Shown here piece after piece: positions 1 through 60,414 of a stretch of DNA of 64,000 nucleotides. The notes below the pieces were generated by a model. That model saw only the letters and a list, made by a program, of their open reading frames with translations, did not search any database and was not told the DNA's origin. The stretch's first letter is position 1, and every line of letters starts with the position of its first letter. The stretch lies in assembly GCF_003334785.1 (NCBI RefSeq), contig NZ_QOWV01000012.1, one strand, 5' to 3'. Source of the DNA: Escherichia coli (GTDB lineage Bacteria > Pseudomonadota > Gammaproteobacteria > Enterobacterales > Enterobacteriaceae). The position numbers and the translations under genes were made by a program.

Positions 1-760
1 CCTGCGCACCAAACCGTGCTGCCAGCGCTTCGGCGGCGCGGGCGAGCAGGGTGGTGTCAACGCCGACGGCGACAAACAGCGCGCCCAGTTCCAGATAGCG
101 TTTTGCCAGTTGCTCATTGGCGATCAGGATCCCCGGCGCTTTGCCCGCTTCGCGGATCTGCACGATCGCCTGCTCAATCGCGGCCTGTACTTCCGGGTGC
201 TGAGGATTACCGGCATAACCCATATCGGCGCTCAGATCCGCCGGGCCGATAAACACGCCGTCGACCCCTTCCACGTCCAGAATCTGCGGTAAGTTCTTCA
301 TTGCCTCACGCGTTTCGATCTGCACCAGCACGCACATTTGATCGTTGGCTTTTTGCAGGTAATCAGGAATACGATTCCAGCGCGAGGCTCGGGCCAGCGC
401 ACTGCCCACACCGCGAATACCGGCGGGGGGATAACGGGTGGCGCGTACCGCTTCACGGGCTTCGTCAGCGTTTTGAACCATCGGCACCAGTAAGGTTTGT
501 GTGCCGACATCCAGCAGTTGTTTGATTTGCACCGGATCGTTCCACGACGGACGTACCACCGGCTGGCTGGGGTAGGGCGCAATCGCCTGTAGCTGGGTGA
601 GCACGGTTTGCACGTTATTCGGCGCGTGCTCACCGTCGATCAATAACCAGTCGAATCCTGCTCCGGCCAGTAACTCTGCGCTGTAGCTGCTACTTAGCCC
701 CAGCCATAATCCGATCTGCGGGCGGCCTGCTTTCAGCGCCGCTTTAAAACTGTTTTCCAT
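1..760 (-). CDS. hpaI: 4-hydroxy-2-oxoheptanedioate aldolase HpaI (class II aldolase); 3-prime end cut by window edge
   Basis: Minus-strand reading from ATG (reverse complement of 758-760) gives [33 protein letters not shown]..., recognised as HpaI/HpcH; RBS GGAGAG just upstream; frame runs off window start (about 9 codons missing). Not in the supplied ORF track because it is truncated. Confidence 0.88.
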
Positions 761-770
761 CGTTCTCTCC

Positions 771-1574
771 TTAAACAAAGCGGCAGCTAATGGAGCCCAT
801 GTTGCCGTAATCGACGTGGAAGGTATCGCCCTTACGCGCCGGAACCGGGCGGGTGAACGAACCGCCGAGAATGATTTGCCCGGCTTCCAGTTGTACGTCA
901 TACGGTGCGAGTTTGTTCGCCAGCCAGGCCACGCCGTTTGCCGGATGATTTAGCACACCAGCGGCGACGCCAGTTTCTTCAATCACGCCATTGCGATACA
1001 TCAGGGCGGAGATCCAACGCAGATCCAGTTCGTCTGGTTTGATCGGACGACCGCCGAGGATCACTCCGGCGTTGGCGGCGTTATCAGAAATGGTGTCGAA
1101 CACTTTGCGCGGGCGCTGGGTTTCCGGATCGATGTTGTGGCAGCGGGCGTCGATCAGCTCCAGCGCCGGGATCACGTAGTCCGTGGCGTTGTAGACGTCG
1201 AACAGCGTGCAGTTTGGCCCACGCAGCGGTTTTGCCAGCACAAAAGCCAGCTCCACTTCAATGCGCGGCACGATAAAGCGATCGGTCGGGATATCGCTGC
1301 CATCGTGGAAGAACATGTCGTCCAGCAATGCACCGTAATCTGGCTCGCTGATTTGTGAGCTGGCCTGCATCGCTTTCGAGGTCAGGCCGATTTTGTGGCC
1401 TTTCAGCGTGCGGCCTTCGGCGATTTTCAGTCGGACCCATTCGCGCTGTACGGCGTAGGCGTCTTCAATGGTGATCTCCGGGTAATCCAGCGAGATCGCG
1501 CGGATCTGTTCACGCTGTTTTTCTGCCTGATCCAGACGCTGGGCGATCAGGGTGTGGGTGTGTTTATCGAACAT
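771..1574 (-). CDS. hpaH: 2-oxo-hept-3-ene-1,7-dioate hydratase HpaH
   Basis: ORF 771..1592 translation matches HpaH/HpcG hydratase; start placed at internal ATG (MFDKHTHTL...) which has an AGGA RBS, giving 267 aa. Confidence 0.9.
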
Positions 1575-2031: not shown

Positions 2032-2883
2032 TTACGCGGGAAGCGGGAAAACAGCGTTAACCTGACCAGTGCCAGAGCTTGGGAACAGCTCGGTAATAAA
2101 CTCCACCTTGCCGTCGTATTTATCCCAGCCGAGCATCCCCAGCAGCATCACCGTGTCGTGCATATTGCCTTCGCCGTAGCAGTAGTCGGCGTACTCCGGC
2201 AGCATATTGCAGAACTCTTTGAACTGGCCTTCGCGCCACAGCTTCACCACGCGCTCGTCCATCTGGCGGTCGAACTCGCGGGTGTAGCTGTTCATCCCTT
2301 CTTCTGCACGCTGATCGTCAATAAAGCGGTGCGATAACGAACCGCTGGCAAGGACCGCCACGGTGCCGTCGTACTGTTCGATCGCTTTCAGAATCGCTTC
2401 GCCCAGCTTGCGGCTGTCGGCAAAATCATGAACGGTACAGAATGCGGAGATGGAGACCACTTTGAAGTGCTTGTCTTCATTCATGTAGCGCATCGGCACC
2501 AGCGTGCCGTATTCCAGTTTCAGGCTGGGAATGTTGTGCGTTTTTGCCCGCACGCCGAGCTTTAAGGCTTCATCGGCAATTAGCTGCCCCAACTCCGGGT
2601 TGCCCTCGTAGTTGTAGGTCATGTCACGAATAAAATGCGGCAGCTCGTTACTGGTGTAGACGCCTTCAAAATGGTCTGCACAGTTGATGTGATAAGCACT
2701 GTTGACCAGCCAGTGGGTATCGAAAACGATAATGGTATCGACGCCCATTTCCCGGCAACGCTTGCTGATCTCTTTATGCCCGTCGATCGCACCCTGGCGG
2801 CAACCGTGGTTTTTCCCAGGCAGCTCAGAGAGATACATCGACGGTACGTGCGTGATCTTGGCGGCTAACGCTAACTTACCCAT
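2032..2883 (-). CDS. hpaD: 3,4-dihydroxyphenylacetate (homoprotocatechuate) 2,3-dioxygenase HpaD, extradiol LigB-type
   Basis: 283-aa ORF MGKLALAAKITHVPSMYLSELPGKNHGCRQ...; typical size and sequence of HpaD; operon context. Confidence 0.9.
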   Translation of the reverse strand: MGKLALAAKITHVPSMYLSELPGKNHGCRQGAIDGHKEISKRCREMGVDTIIVFDTHWLVNSAYHINCADHFEGVYTSNELPHFIRDMTYNYEGNPELGQLIADEALKLGVRAKTHNIPSLKLEYGTLVPMRYMNEDKHFKVVSISAFCTVHDFADSRKLGEAILKAIEQYDGTVAVLASGSLSHRFIDDQRAEEGMNSYTREFDRQMDERVVKLWREGQFKEFCNMLPEYADYCYGEGNMHDTVMLLGMLGWDKYDGKVEFITELFPSSGTGQVNAVFPLPA

Positions 2884-2884
2884 A

Positions 2885-4351
2885 TCAGACTCCCCATTTC
2901 GGAATTGGATGGTCGCCCATGGAAATGCAGACGTTCTTCATTTCCGCGAACACTTCGAAGCTGTACTCACCGCCTTCACGCCCGGTGCCGGAGGCTTTTA
3001 CGCCGCCAAATGGCTGGCGCAGGTCACGCACGTTCTGGGTGTTGACGAACACCATGCCAGCTTCAATGCCACGCGCCAGGCGTAACACTTTGCTGACATC
3101 CTGTGTCCAGATGTACGACGCGAGGCCGTACTCCACGTCGTTTGCCAGACGTAAGCCTTCGGCTTCGTCTTTAAACGGCAGCAGGCAGGCGACCGGCCCG
3201 AAAATCTCTTCCTGGGCAACGCGCATACGGTTATCTACGTCCGCCAGCACCGTTGGGCGCAGGAAGTTGCCGCCTTTCAGGTGTGCAGGCAGGTCAGACG
3301 GTTTATCCGGGCCGCCCGCCAGCAGGGTTGCGCCTTCTTCAATGCCGAGACGGATATAGCCGGAGACTTTATCCCAGTGTTGCTGGCTGATAAGCGCCCC
3401 AACCTGGGTATTCGGATCGTTCGGATCGCCCACGCGCAGACGGTTGGCGCGTTCGGCAAAGCGTTTAACGAATTCCGGGTAGATGCTTTGCTGAATAAAG
3501 ATGCGCGAACCGGCGGTGCAGCGCTCGCCGTTGATCGAGAAGATGGTGAACAGGGCGGCGTCCAGCGCGCGTTCAATATCGGCATCTTCAAAAATCAGCA
3601 CCGGCGATTTACCGCCCAGTTCCATGGAGTATTTTTTCAGCCCGGCGTTTTTCATGATGTTGCGCCCGGTGGCCGTACCGCCGGTGAACGACACGGCACG
3701 TACGTCATGATGACGAACCAGCGCATCGCCTGCGGTTGCGCCGTAGCCCTGTACCACGTTCAGCACGCCTGCCGGAATACCGGCTTCCAGCGCCAGCTCA
3801 CCCAGGCGGTCAGCGGTCAGCGGGGAGAGTTCCGACATTTTCAGTACCGCGGTATTGCCCAGCGCCAGACACGGCGCGACCTTCCATGTGGCGGTCATAA
3901 ACGGTACGTTCCACGGCGATACCAGCGCACAAACGCCCACCGGCTGCACCAGCGTGTAGTTGAGCATCTTGTCGTCAACCGGATAGGTCTTGCCGTTCAT
4001 CTGCTGGCAGACTTCCGCGAAAAATTCAAAGTTGTGGGAAGCGCGTGGGATCAACACATTTTTGGTCTGATGGATCGGCAGGCCGGTGTCCGCGGTTTCC
4101 ATCGCGGCGATCTCTGGCACGTTCTGGTCGATCAGATCGCCCAGACGGCGCATCAGGCGCGCACGCTCTTTCATCGGCAGATTGGCCCATTTCGGGAACG
4201 CCTCTTTCGCTGCCGCTACCGCCTGATTGATCTCCGCTTCACCGCCAGAGGCCACATCCGCCAGCACTTCACCCGTTGCCGGATTGGTGGTCTGAAAGTA
4301 GTCGTTACCTGCAACATTTTTGCCGTTGATCCAATGATTTACTTTTTTCAT
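2885..4351 (-). CDS. hpaE: 5-carboxymethyl-2-hydroxymuconate semialdehyde dehydrogenase HpaE (NAD-dependent aldehyde dehydrogenase)
   Basis: 488-aa ORF with aldehyde dehydrogenase hallmarks (ELGGKSP, catalytic Cys region GERCTAGSR); operon context. Confidence 0.92.
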   Translation of the reverse strand: MKKVNHWINGKNVAGNDYFQTTNPATGEVLADVASGGEAEINQAVAAAKEAFPKWANLPMKERARLMRRLGDLIDQNVPEIAAMETADTGLPIHQTKNVLIPRASHNFEFFAEVCQQMNGKTYPVDDKMLNYTLVQPVGVCALVSPWNVPFMTATWKVAPCLALGNTAVLKMSELSPLTADRLGELALEAGIPAGVLNVVQGYGATAGDALVRHHDVRAVSFTGGTATGRNIMKNAGLKKYSMELGGKSPVLIFEDADIERALDAALFTIFSINGERCTAGSRIFIQQSIYPEFVKRFAERANRLRVGDPNDPNTQVGALISQQHWDKVSGYIRLGIEEGATLLAGGPDKPSDLPAHLKGGNFLRPTVLADVDNRMRVAQEEIFGPVACLLPFKDEAEGLRLANDVEYGLASYIWTQDVSKVLRLARGIEAGMVFVNTQNVRDLRQPFGGVKASGTGREGGEYSFEVFAEMKNVCISMGDHPIPKWGV

Positions 4352-35561: not shown

Positions 35562-35640
35562 TAATGGGTGCGGCTTGATGCCCTCACCCCGGCCCTCTCC
35601 CACAGGGAGAGGGTGAAAACATGTTGATAAGGATAAAACA

Positions 35641-36360
35641 ATGGCTACCCCACACATTAATGCAGAAATGGGCGATTTCGCTGACGTAGTTTTGATGCCA
35701 GGCGACCCGCTGCGTGCGAAGTATATTGCTGAAACTTTCCTTGAAGATGCCCGTGAAGTGAACAACGTTCGCGGTATGCTGGGCTTCACCGGTACTTACA
35801 AAGGCCGCAAAATTTCCGTAATGGGTCACGGTATGGGTATCCCGTCCTGCTCCATCTACACCAAAGAACTGATCACCGATTTCGGCGTGAAGAAAATTAT
35901 CCGCGTGGGTTCCTGTGGCGCAGTTCTGCCGCACGTAAAACTGCGCGACGTCGTTATCGGTATGGGTGCCTGCACCGATTCCAAAGTTAACCGTATCCGT
36001 TTTAAAGACCATGACTTTGCCGCTATCGCTGACTTTGACATGGTGCGTAACGCGGTAGACGCGGCTAAAGCACTGGGTGTTGATGCTCGCGTTGGTAACC
36101 TGTTCTCCGCTGACCTGTTCTACTCTCCGGACGGCGAAATGTTCGACGTGATGGAAAAATACGGCATCCTCGGCGTGGAAATGGAAGCGGCTGGTATCTA
36201 CGGCGTCGCTGCAGAATTTGGCGCGAAAGCCCTGACCATCTGCACCGTGTCTGACCACATCCGCACTCACGAGCAGACCACTGCCGCTGAGCGTCAGACC
36301 ACCTTCAACGACATGATCAAAATCGCACTGGAATCCGTTCTGCTGGGCGATAAAGAGTAA
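35641..36360 (+). CDS. deoD: purine nucleoside phosphorylase
   Basis: 239-aa [36 protein letters not shown]...; recognised DeoD. Confidence 0.96.
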
Positions 36361-36392
36361 TTGTGTTTCGCTGAAAGGCGATTGTCGTGTTA

Positions 36393-36424
36393 AGCCGGAG
36401 TGGGAGACTGCTCCGGCTTTTAGT
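36393..36424 (+). terminator. Rho-independent terminator of the deo operon
   Basis: Hairpin AGCCGGAG-tgggagactg-CTCCGGCT followed by TTTTAGT. Confidence 0.8.
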
Positions 36425-36519
36425 ATCTATTCATCAATAGCAACTGATTTATAGATTTACTATTATTTTTCATATAGATAAAAAATAAAATACATTCAAG
36501 TATCTATTCACGAATCTAT

Positions 36520-36783
36520 TCATTTATGTTCAGCCGTCATCCAGGAAGGGCATATCAGCAACTCTGGTGGACAACCATAAATTTCTGCCATTTTGCTTTT
36601 GATGTTTGAGCTAAGCCGTTCCGTCTTTTCGATCTGTTTTAGAGAATTAATCGAGATACCTAACATTTTACTTACTTCAGCAAGCGATAATTTATGCCTG
36701 ATACGCACGGCGGCTAGCCAGGAAATACGCTGGCTGAACATTAAATTGATAATCTCCCGTTCCTGGTTTTCCAGATCGATCAT
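36520..36783 (-). CDS. orphan XRE-family helix-turn-helix protein (87 aa); possibly a truncated remnant of the K-12 yjjJ/hipH locus
   Basis: ORF MIDLENQEREIINLMFSQRISWLAAVRIRHKLSLAEVSKMLGISINSLKQIEKTERLSSNIKSKMAEIYGCPPELLICPSWMTAEHK has the XRE/Cro-type HTH pattern; ATG start 31 nt after lplA stop, same strand; no obvious RBS checked. Confidence 0.55.
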   Translation of the reverse strand: MIDLENQEREIINLMFSQRISWLAAVRIRHKLSLAEVSKMLGISINSLKQIEKTERLSSNIKSKMAEIYGCPPELLICPSWMTAEHK

Positions 36784-36814
36784 ATTTCCTTCCCTGGATA
36801 TTTTAATCAGCGAG

Positions 36815-37831
36815 TTACCTTACCGCCCCCGCTATCCACGTCGACAACTTCCGTAGCTCTTTTTCCTGGTCCGGGAAGTCAACCAACAGCGCTTCGCACT
36901 CTTGTTGCAGCATATCCGCGCGGTACAGGCAGCCTTGCAGTCGCCCGGCGAGGGCTTCCAGCGGCGCGGGGTTGAGGCTGTCGGTAAACACCTGGGCGCG
37001 GGTGATATGGCCTTTTTCAACGTCGAAATGCAGTTCCACGCCGCCCCAGCTAAAGCGTTCATCCAGCAGATGCGAGAATGCCGGAGCCTGACCGAAGTTC
37101 CATTCCCAGCTACTCTGACGGGCAAAGGTTTCGGCGAAGTTTGGCAAGTCTGGCGTTTTGTCCGGGGAGATGATTTCCGCTTCTACACGCTCGCCATAAT
37201 GGGCGAAAAAGGCCTTGGTTATGGCCTCGCAAACCTGCTCATGGGTGATCCCCGGCAGCAGCTCGGTGAGGTTGGTCACGCGGGAACGCACTGAGGTAAT
37301 GCCTTTCGCCGCCAGTTTCTTTTTATCCGGATTGAGATAGTTTGCCAGGCGGCTAAGGTCGGCATTGAGCAGCAAGGTGCCGTGGTGGAAGCCACGATCT
37401 TTGGTTTCGCGATAGGCCGATCCTGAGACTTTGCGGTCGCCTTCGGCGGTTTTCACCACCAGATCGTTACGCCCGGACGCTTCGGCGCTGACGCCAAGCG
37501 CGTTCAGCGCATTGAGCACAATCGACGTGGAGATGGTTTTATCGTACTCCGGCTTGCCAGCCATAAAGGTAAAGCAGGTATTGCCGAGATCGTGGAACAC
37601 CGCGCCGCCACCGCTACTGCGCCGTGCCAGGCGGACGTTATCTTCTTCCATCCGCCGGGTATTACACTCTTTCCACGGGTTCTGCGCGCGACCAATCACT
37701 ACCGTGTCGGCATTGCGCCAGAGAAACAGAACGCGCTGCGTGGCGGGCATCTGGCGAAAAATACACTCCTCCACCGCCAGGTTAAACCACGGGTCGTAAG
37801 AGTCAGAGATGAGCAGGCGTAATGTGGACAT
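36815..37831 (-). CDS. lplA: lipoate-protein ligase A
   Basis: 338-aa [28 protein letters not shown]...; recognised LplA. Confidence 0.96.
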
Positions 37832-37858
37832 AACGATTTCCTTTCTTGTAGTAATGGG

Positions 37859-38503
37859 TCACTCTTTTTTCTCGCTTTCTTCCTCTTCCGGCACCGGTTT
37901 GCTGGCGGTTAACAGGAAGGGCGATTGCTGCCAGCGGGTACGTTTACCCTGTAGCAGCGTGCGGGTCAGCACTACGCCGATTGCCAGTGAAAGCAGCAAC
38001 ATCAGGCGTAAAATGTTAGTGGTGTTATCCACCTGTTGGGCTTCGGTGGCGAGCGTATGGGTGTCGAGCGTCAGGCGCAGATAGCCGAGCGGTCCGTTTT
38101 TCCCGGCAATTGGTTCGACAATCTGCTGGTTAAAATAGCCGCCCGCTTTTTTACCGTCGAGCGCCAGCCGGTCGCGCACTTCGACGCTTTCGCCAGAACG
38201 GGCGATAAGATCGCCTTGTTCGTCATACACGCCCGCGTCGAGGATACGGCTTTCATCCGTTAACTGATCGAGGATCGCCTGAATGCGTTTTTCATCCGGC
38301 GAGTCGGTACGCATCAGCGGTGCAACGTTCAGCGTTACCTGACGCGCCAGGGTGCGGGCCAGTTCTTCCAGCTGTGGATTACGTTGTCGCTGGTGGTTTT
38401 GACTAAACCATGACGCTCCCTGCATCAGCGCCACTAACAAGGCAAGACAGAACAGGACAATCACTGCCCGATGCAGCCGGAATTTCAGTTTTGTGCGAGC
38501 CAT
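37859..38503 (-). CDS. smp: membrane protein Smp (YtjB)
   Basis: 214-aa ORF with N-terminal TM segment; conserved neighbour of lplA and serB. Confidence 0.88.
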   Translation of the reverse strand: MARTKLKFRLHRAVIVLFCLALLVALMQGASWFSQNHQRQRNPQLEELARTLARQVTLNVAPLMRTDSPDEKRIQAILDQLTDESRILDAGVYDEQGDLIARSGESVEVRDRLALDGKKAGGYFNQQIVEPIAGKNGPLGYLRLTLDTHTLATEAQQVDNTTNILRLMLLLSLAIGVVLTRTLLQGKRTRWQQSPFLLTASKPVPEEEESEKKE

Positions 38504-60391: not shown

Positions 60392-60414
60392 CATCTATTC
60401 ATTATCTCAATCAG

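Follow-up and report, generated by a model that had tools for sequence, protein, structure and literature searches.

The interval between deoD and lplA in the Escherichia coli DNA analysed here (the window, a stretch of 64,000 nt) carries one of two non-homologous alleles that occupy a single chromosomal site. Where K-12 has the kinase gene hipH (yjjJ), the window has a 287-bp segment which encodes, on the opposite strand, an 87-aa helix-turn-helix (HTH) protein, here called ORF87. The explanation that best accounts for the observations overall, and which we consider probable, is that both alleles are old, that hipH was replaced at its site, and that ORF87 is expressed and acts in a repressor-like manner.

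In detail, the ancestral site would have held hipH together with its own 5′ region, an AT-rich spacer with one distal and two or three proximal copies of the 9-mer ATCTATTCA around a promoter. One ancient event would have exchanged the coding sequence of hipH, between approximately its start codon and the stop codon of lplA, for the 287-bp segment (window 36529..36815) and would have left the hipH regulatory region standing. The incoming segment appears to encode the HTH domain alone of a HigA-type (RelE/ParE-associated) antitoxin. ORF87 would then be translated from the lplA transcript and would probably be a small XRE-type repressor that binds DNA as a dimer and has no antitoxin role. Its target may be what remains of the hipH promoter next to it, together with the array; left uncontrolled, this promoter would drive antisense transcription into ORF87 and lplA. 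The features on which this reading is built are the following, in window coordinates.

35641..36360, plus strand: deoD, purine-nucleoside phosphorylase, the left conserved flank (from the ORF list and the RefSeq annotation of the identical ATCC 8739 region).
36392..36423, plus strand: intrinsic-terminator hairpin of deoD, AGCCGGAG...CTCCGGCT followed by a T run, read from the sequence and common to K-12 (left homologous block).
36425..36433, plus strand: distal 9-mer ATCTATTCA, an exact copy.
36467..36496, plus strand: putative relic hipH promoter-like element, TTTTCA-18 nt-TACATT, with the -10 inside the degenerate first proximal repeat.
36490..36522, plus strand: proximal tandem array with a 12-nt period, ATACATTCA (2 mismatches), ATCTATTCA and ATCTATTCA, the repeats starting at 36490, 36502 and 36514.
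36520..36783, minus strand: ORF87, 87-aa XRE/Cro-C1-type HTH protein with an ATG start, RefSeq WP_000566150.1 ("helix-turn-helix domain-containing protein").
36784..36814, minus strand: lplA-ORF87 spacer of 31 nt, with the Shine-Dalgarno-like sequence AGGGAAGGA 5′ of the ORF87 ATG (read from the sequence).
36815..37831, minus strand: lplA, lipoate-protein ligase A, the right conserved flank; K-12 homology restarts at the lplA stop codon.

The interval 36361..36814 measures 454 bp, in essence what an earlier note on this DNA had described, although the note gave 455 bp. Its description of one sizeable ORF on the minus strand (36520..36783), 31 nt past the lplA stop codon, is confirmed. The end of ORF87 lies 159 nt from the deoD stop codon, and the TCA of the last proximal repeat forms the ORF87 stop codon on the opposite strand. 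The relic promoter-like element is directed toward ORF87 and lplA and is therefore antisense to both. Cotranscription of lplA and ORF87 is suggested by their spacing, and with a gap of 31 nt, a Shine-Dalgarno sequence of its own and no intervening terminator, ORF87 would be translated from the lplA transcript. A consensus scan of 36300..37900 for promoters and terminators gave sites no more numerous than in shuffled sequence; it yielded no terminator between lplA and ORF87, and it missed the deoD hairpin because the T run of the latter is short. The one minus-strand promoter-like site from the same scan was rejected as the ORF87 promoter since it overlaps the ORF87 start codon. No Rfam family matched 36200..37000 at E<=1, so that the AT-rich spacer contains no known sRNA or riboswitch. 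On the plus strand, a 27-codon ORF (36526..36609) begins at the equivalent of the hipH ATG; it was not retained as a gene candidate, as this ATG is lost in Superficieibacter and in Enterobacteriaceae UBA3516.

In K-12 (BW25113), the 1332-bp yjjJ gene lies on the plus strand between deoD and lplA and abuts the lplA stop codon, just as the earlier note had stated. Its product, a HipA-family kinase, has 443 aa and an HTH at the N-terminus, and HipH/YjjJ constitutes clade X of Gerdes et al. 2021 (PMC8262856). Sensitive blastn of the window against K-12 delimited a left shared block (window 35641..36528, K-12 501..1389), which extends up to and includes the yjjJ ATG, and a right shared block (window 36816..37831, K-12 2720..3735), which runs from the lplA stop codon onward. 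Between these blocks lie 287 bp in the window versus 1330 bp in K-12, and hipH has thus been replaced with junctions at its start codon and at the end of lplA.

The window's arrangement is not an assembly artefact, a concern voiced beforehand: the interval is 100% identical to that of E. coli ATCC 8739 and is found at >=80% coverage in 4058 of 5426 complete E. coli genomes. The yjjJ gene is present in 1346-1348 of the same 5426, and the two states are almost exactly complementary. The locus therefore does differ from the reference as had been claimed, though it is the K-12 reference that represents the unusual state, with yjjJ in the minority (about 25%, against about 75% of E. coli with the window's state). 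Matches to ORF87 at >=95% in the plasmid collection were records of 0.4-4.9 Mb and not mobile copies. Studies in K-12 and UPEC have addressed HipH/YjjJ as a toxin involved in persistence and genome stability, yet about three quarters of complete E. coli genomes are without hipH. Generalising HipH biology to the species thus needs caution: K-12 is in the minority state and most E. coli are natural hipH-nulls. The locus itself is a variable site with an ordinary dimorphism of accessory genes, and ORF87 is already annotated in RefSeq; fixed-site dimorphisms of accessory genes and orphan XRE regulators are both common, and the specialist will find little surprise in either.

To place the two alleles in a wider context, we classified the lplA-deoD gap in an LplA-anchored survey of 80 loci, one per species. 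The site is empty, with a gap of 49-111 bp, in about 50 species, examples being E. whittamii, two Salmonella subspecies and most Citrobacter, Klebsiella and Enterobacter. Full-length hipH occupies it in E. albertii (95%) and in five to six other genera (60-69%), and two species carry hipH remnants. ORF87 homologs are found at the site in a divergent Escherichia genome (87%), Superficieibacter (54%) and UBA3516 (51%). Other loci carry unrelated cargo such as chaperone-usher fimbrial operons, single fimbrial-subunit remnants and RAYT-like transposase ORFs. In E. whittamii, the cassette has apparently been deleted.

The gene order deoD-hipH-lplA-smp-serB recurs in Salmonella enterica and Cedecea, and hipH is embedded in deoD-hipH-smp-serB in Erwinia and in yjjG-hipH-smp-serB in Pantoea. 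This shared place in Salmonella, Cedecea, Erwinia and Pantoea identifies hipH as an old resident. Judged by gene order, hipH is the ancestral occupant of the site across Enterobacterales, the empty sites are losses, and ORF87 is a later replacement. ORF87 is confined to Escherichia/Shigella and two other genera, in which it is 51-54% identical. In Escherichia as in Superficieibacter, its stop codon falls within the last repeat, a match that points to one origin of the ORF87 haplotype.

A conserved element of the interval is the ATCTATTCA array. One copy of the motif lies just 3′ of the deoD terminator and is followed by 2-3 tandem copies with a 12-nt period. In most hipH loci, 1 to 3 nt separate the end of the array from the ATG, the distance being larger in Pantoea and Leclercia; in ORF87 loci, the end of the array overlaps the ORF87 stop codon. 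It marks the hipH 5′ region in 11/11 hipH loci examined and stands intact beside ORF87 in the window. The array likewise precedes hipH in Salmonella, Erwinia, Cedecea and, despite the different upstream neighbour, Pantoea. Across the 45 kb of intervals from the 80 loci we counted 25 exact copies, all on one strand and all within loci that bear hipH or ORF87 or within the remnants of such loci. The 1.16 Mb of surrounding sequence held a single copy. The distance from the distal to the first proximal repeat is 63-66 bp in 15/15 hipH or ORF87 loci, and in these 15 loci identity is 93-100% within the motif versus 42-67% in the intervening spacer. From its position and conserved geometry, the array belongs to the hipH 5′ regulatory region, and the window has retained it.

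In K-12, the spacer contains an RpoD holoenzyme site detected by genomic SELEX and is bound by H-NS; the promoter predicted from the RpoD SELEX is TTTTCA-18-TCTATT (PMC3946193). The -10 of this predicted promoter falls inside the first proximal repeat, and in 4/4 ORF87-type loci this repeat is preceded by a TTTTCA at a distance of 23-24 nt. Control of hipH has been described as unknown (PMC8262856). c-di-GMP acts on hipH via the native promoter region, no mediator being named in the passages on this effect (PMC11452175). Moreover, yjjJ-lplA is a listed convergent excludon in K-12 (PMC12288877), which indicates that transcription crosses the yjjJ-lplA boundary. Full-text search of the open-access literature returned no description of the ATCTATTCA motif among the matches listed, all of which concerned eukaryotes or other unrelated subjects, and no description of the ORF87 allele was found in the searchable open-access literature. 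As a candidate control element for hipH, the invariant array is concrete enough to be probed by mutation, and the ORF87 haplotype is a natural experiment, since there the array has outlasted the kinase.

That three genera keep the array beside ORF87 although hipH is missing from these loci speaks either for a factor that binds it in both haplotypes or for a promoter with a role of its own. It is possible, at a probability we would put clearly below even, that selection acts not on ORF87 but on the promoter together with the array. In that case, a host factor shared by the two haplotypes would bind the array and control transcription into hipH or, in the window's haplotype, antisense transcription into ORF87 and lplA; the targets of ORF87, if any, would lie elsewhere. 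That loci of the hipH and ORF87 types conserve the array and its geometry equally well favours such a unit, as do the c-di-GMP control that maps to the native promoter region with no mediator named in those passages (PMC11452175), the listed excludon (PMC12288877) and the binding of RpoD and H-NS to the K-12 spacer (PMC3946193). However, no second array locus was seen, the only other copies being one isolated copy in the 1.16 Mb of flanks and one in the 64-kb window, so that a dedicated host regulator would have a one-promoter regulon. Control of lplA by this route is evidently not needed where the site is empty, as it is in most Enterobacteriaceae, and the purifying selection on ORF87 would be left unexplained.

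Under the preferred reading, in which a replacement left ORF87 as an expressed repressor-like protein, the relic promoter and array are our best guess for what ORF87 binds. This is nevertheless the weakest step of the proposal, and we hold it to be doubtful. XRE dimers usually recognise inverted repeats, whereas the array consists of direct repeats with variable 3-nt linkers. Direct repeats would better suit a winged-helix binder, such as the HipH N-terminus, or a host factor. In addition, the identical motif is conserved in hipH loci without ORF87, which makes a binder common to both haplotypes the more economical assumption. An inverted repeat at the inter-repeat junction (e.g. ATTCACGAAT in E. 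coli) was considered as an XRE-dimer operator and rejected because the 3-nt linkers vary freely between species, and the sequence near ORF87 contains no identifiable inverted-repeat operator. Within the HipH N-terminus, the elements SQATFSRL and FGKARATRYAL are nearly invariant across genera, and this part of the kinase may recognise the equally invariant ATCTATTCA motif. A further elaboration takes the array as the control element of hipH, either an operator for the winged-helix N-terminus of HipH or the site of the factor through which the hipH promoter responds to c-di-GMP, with ORF87 rewired onto the promoter and gating antisense transcription into lplA. We consider this improbable. If it were true, it would link lipoate salvage to the signal that induces a toxin elsewhere, in the 75% of E. 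coli that lack hipH.

Within Escherichia, the dN/dS of ORF87 is 0.16-0.25, reaching up to 0.7 against one divergent allele (L004), a value based on few (~15) substitutions; the comparison with the UBA3516 homolog gives about 0.2. For lplA and deoD, dN/dS is 0.01-0.08, with dS similar to that of ORF87. The similar dS and the dN/dS values together show that ORF87 has been inherited along with its flanks and that purifying selection on it is moderate. Allele frequencies were determined with a 55-nt query centred on a single SNP, for which the exact 28-nt word of megablast allows only a matching central base to seed. By this count, 1692 of the 5426 E. coli genomes (~31%) carry an allele in which Q50 is changed to a stop codon, and at least 2186 have the intact Q50 codon, as does the window. 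A premature stop is present in roughly 42% of E. coli ORF87 copies. Other alleles are frameshifted or probably disrupted by insertions; the window's copy is intact. With the Q50 stop allele in about 31% of genomes, ORF87 is dispensable in a large part of E. coli.

These data bear on the view that ORF87 is a relic devoid of function, a piece of an antitoxin once captured and now drifting toward loss, so that the locus would matter solely as a natural hipH-null. The weak constraint, the nonsense allele in 1692 genomes and the frameshifted and probably insertion-disrupted alleles all speak against a functional role. A dN/dS several-fold above that of the neighbouring genes, and up to 0.7 in some comparisons, is likewise what drift would give, and the tiny size of the family and the apparent deletion of the cassette in E. 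whittamii point the same way. We nonetheless think this view rather unlikely to be correct, since dN/dS is about 0.2 and not about 1, both within Escherichia and across genera. Furthermore, an intact ORF of 86-87 aa with about 50% identity is maintained in three genera, with conservation of the HTH core and of an AEIYGC motif, and the intact codon is kept in no fewer than 2186 E. coli genomes.

The preferred reading of ORF87 as a repressor-like protein draws on its fold. Pfam HTH_3 (PF01381) matches residues 23-76 over model positions 1-55 of 55 with an E-value of 1.2e-6, and the HTH_19 and HTH_31 profiles match as well. An AlphaFold2 model built from a 13-sequence family alignment (pLDDT 88.2, pTM 0.78) predicts a five-helix Cro/C1-type HTH with an N-terminal helix at residues 4-18 and further helices at 22-29, 34-41, 45-54 and 59-69, the fold being globular and helices 2-3 forming the helix-turn-helix. 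The best Foldseek matches of this model are CylR2, the SinR N-domain, controller C-proteins of restriction-modification systems, P22 c2 and 434 Cro, with rmsd values of 1.4-2 A over 53-60 residues and target-normalised TM scores of ~0.7; the probability is ~1.0 for CylR2, SinR-N, P22 c2 and 434 Cro. ORF87 thus resembles the XRE/Cro-C1 (HTH_3) proteins in profile, in fold and in the small size typical of dimeric repressors. It differs from CylR2, SinR-N, the C-proteins, P22 c2 and 434 Cro in its low identity to them (just 20-30%) and in having the extra N-terminal helix (4-18) and a C-terminal tail (77-87). It also differs in showing no upstream operator or promoter of its own, because it starts only 31 nt past lplA.

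By sequence, ORF87 has few relatives. A word-indexed search found matches solely in Escherichia and Shigella (94% in E. marmotae, 93% in Escherichia sp. E1130), and phmmer against 1.84 billion representatives added one full-length cluster, P0079, with 44% identity, which likewise lies 3′ of an lplA-like gene. Beyond this cluster, the sole relatives from phmmer are HigA-like proteins of 95-133 aa, which match through their C-terminal 70 residues. They align to ORF87 residues ~3-77 (~8-76) with 31-43% identity and share the conserved A-x-I/V-Y-G/N-C tail. These proteins have an extra N-terminal domain of ~55 aa, and ORF87 begins where that domain ends. A gene of the RelE/ParE toxin family lies directly upstream on the same strand in 4/4 relatives with readable context. 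These toxin-linked proteins (118-133 aa) come from a metagenomic contig, a Leclercia plasmid, a Serratia plasmid and a Pasteurella phage. A weak RelB-like antitoxin match was obtained for the N-terminus of one HTH relative (P0081), and PHROG 7241, which has the same architecture as the HigA-like relatives, matches ORF87 with E 3.4e-10. The alignment to the HigA-like relatives and the linkage of the latter to toxins identify ORF87, by its sequence, as the HTH domain of a HigA-type antitoxin that lacks the N-terminal domain and the toxin. The locus offers a clean instance of a toxin gene whose place has been taken by a piece of an unrelated antitoxin.

The HigA-type modules, in which a RelE/ParE toxin gene is followed by an HTH antitoxin of ~120-130 aa, thus supply the only wider sequence relatives of ORF87. 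ORF87 departs from them in missing the ~55-aa N-terminal domain and in being chromosomal, at a fixed site adjoining lplA. No RelE/ParE-like ORF adjoins it, its neighbours being lplA, the repeat array and the deoD terminator. Without the N-terminal domain and an adjacent toxin, it lacks two defining features of a toxin-antitoxin module. In NCBIfam, no family came near its curated cut-off (best sigma-70/ECF, 18 bits vs 42.9), and PADLOC returned a generic HTH model alone, which places ORF87 outside every curated family or defence system in these collections. Taken together, its sequence marks ORF87 as an orphan XRE regulator that is antitoxin-derived. The second of two readings in the earlier note, an unrelated antitoxin-like orphan regulator at a variable locus, is thereby borne out by the site survey and the toxin-linked HTH relatives.

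HipB, the small (~88 aa) XRE-type antitoxin associated in the literature with Hip kinases (PMC8262856), shares the HTH class and size range of ORF87. However, the two have no detectable sequence similarity although HipB structures are available in the PDB, and no hip kinase gene adjoins ORF87. A PDB sequence search at E<=1 returned CylR2 (E 0.45) and a nanobody and no HipB chain, and HipB is absent from the 50 best Foldseek matches listed for the ORF87 model.

The antitoxin ancestry raises the idea that ORF87 acts in trans as an orphan antitoxin against an incoming or unlinked toxin, be it HipH or one of RelE/ParE type, and that such anti-addiction allowed or stabilised the loss of hipH. The homology of its HTH domain to antitoxins that adjoin RelE/ParE toxins and its presence in place of a toxin gene would fit this idea. 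Moreover, Maeda and co-workers reportedly observed in 2017 that HipB, an unrelated HTH antitoxin, can counteract YjjJ. The N-terminal extension of HigA2-type antitoxins is their neutralising part, and ORF87 lacks precisely the ~55-aa extension of its toxin-linked relatives. It also has no toxin gene beside it and shows no detectable similarity to HipB among PDB sequences at E<=1. Since hipH and ORF87 are mutually exclusive at the site, the two would normally not be found in the same cell. We therefore rate a role as antitoxin in trans as very improbable.

The preferred reading, replacement of hipH by an unrelated gene, also contrasts with the first reading of the earlier note, in which ORF87 would be the N-terminal HTH remnant of a yjjJ allele from which ~1.1 kb coding for the kinase had been deleted. 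Although an HTH is common to the two proteins and their genes lie in the same interval, this reading is refuted, and its chance of being right is negligible, given that ORF87 and yjjJ are on opposite strands (minus and plus, respectively), that the two share no DNA or protein similarity, that the HTH classes differ (XRE HTH_3 in ORF87 versus a winged-helix-like HipH N-terminus), and that the breakpoints of homology are at the yjjJ ATG and the lplA stop codon, with none inside the yjjJ coding sequence. Window 36529..36815 gave no match to yjjJ on either strand in blastn with a word size of 7. In blastp of ORF87 against YjjJ, the best match comprised 6 residues (E 0.24) and none fell in YjjJ residues 1-100. 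What ORF87 has in common with HipH/YjjJ is the exact same chromosomal slot and the upstream repeat array of hipH, which ORF87 loci keep; it differs in homology, strand, length (87 vs 443 aa), HTH class and the lack of a kinase domain. Genuine yjjJ stubs do occur and are plus-strand yjjJ fragments, unlike ORF87: E. coli WB61 carries a plus-strand remnant of 192 bp, annotated "transcriptional regulator, missing C-terminus", and Phytobacter diazotrophicus has kept aa 1-49.

The 5′ region of hipH (yjjJ), the HipA-family kinase gene that occupies the deoD–lplA site in K-12, is marked across Enterobacterales by a conserved array of direct repeats of ATCTATTCA, for which no description was found in the searchable literature. 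One distal copy is followed, at a distance of 63–66 bp, by two to three proximal copies with a 12-nt period. The array also lies upstream of hipH in L094–L099 and is present in the deoD–lplA loci L004, L019 and L023, and it is still retained beside ORF87, the 87-aa HTH gene of the window.

Window 36425–36522: ATCTATTCA array, copies at 36425, 36490, 36502 and 36514
K-12 locus (L001) 1289–1386: ATCTATTCA array

A lone exact ATCTATTCA directly 3′ of a stop codon (window 60393–60401) is a chance-level single copy (~0.5 expected in 64 kb).

In other Enterobacteriaceae the contents of the site vary and include fimbrial operons and remnants, RAYT-like transposase ORFs and other small genes. The array was absent from all of the alternative-cargo loci listed here.

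L011, L049, L056, L059: chaperone-usher fimbrial operons, 5.3–6 kb
L029, L058: single fimbrial-subunit remnants, ~0.9 kb
L032, L080: RAYT-like transposase ORFs
L028, L054, L070: other small genes

The earlier note had considered ORF87 as an N-terminal stub of yjjJ; the real appearance expected of such a stub is provided by two loci from other genomes.

E. coli WB61 (L093) 2501–2692, + strand: yjjJ/hipH N-terminal remnant
Phytobacter diazotrophicus (L025), + strand: yjjJ/hipH N-terminal remnant

The seemingly empty deoD–lplA gap of Escherichia whittamii (82 bp, L003 9015–9096) retains ATTCATCAAT, made up of the distal repeat's 3′ portion and flanking sequence typical of the ORF87 haplotype, which suggests that this site arose by secondary deletion rather than never having been occupied.

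ORF87 itself is polymorphic: among 5426 complete E. coli genomes, 2186 carry the intact Q50 codon seen in the window and 1692 a Q50-to-stop allele (L090 1377, equivalent to window 36636). A frameshifted allele occurs in L087, and insertion-disrupted alleles probably exist as well. Copies with 87–97% identity were found in the plasmid collection (H120–H127) on plasmid-labelled records of 0.4–4.9 Mb; these replicons are probably chromosome-like or mislabelled, and their ORF87 copies not mobile.

Two smaller features lie nearby.

Window 36526–36609, + strand: 27-codon ORF antisense to ORF87, its start equivalent to the hipH ATG
Window 35562–35640: deoB–deoD spacer, 79 bp

The 27-codon ORF is probably not a gene, since its ATG, present in Escherichia, is absent in Superficieibacter and UBA3516. 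In the window the deoB–deoD spacer contains the GC-rich hairpin CCCTCTCCCACAGGGAGAGGG; a shorter form of 56 bp is found in K-12 as well as in certain further E. coli (L001, L087, L088), so that the spacer represents a second small length dimorphism near the deoD–lplA site.
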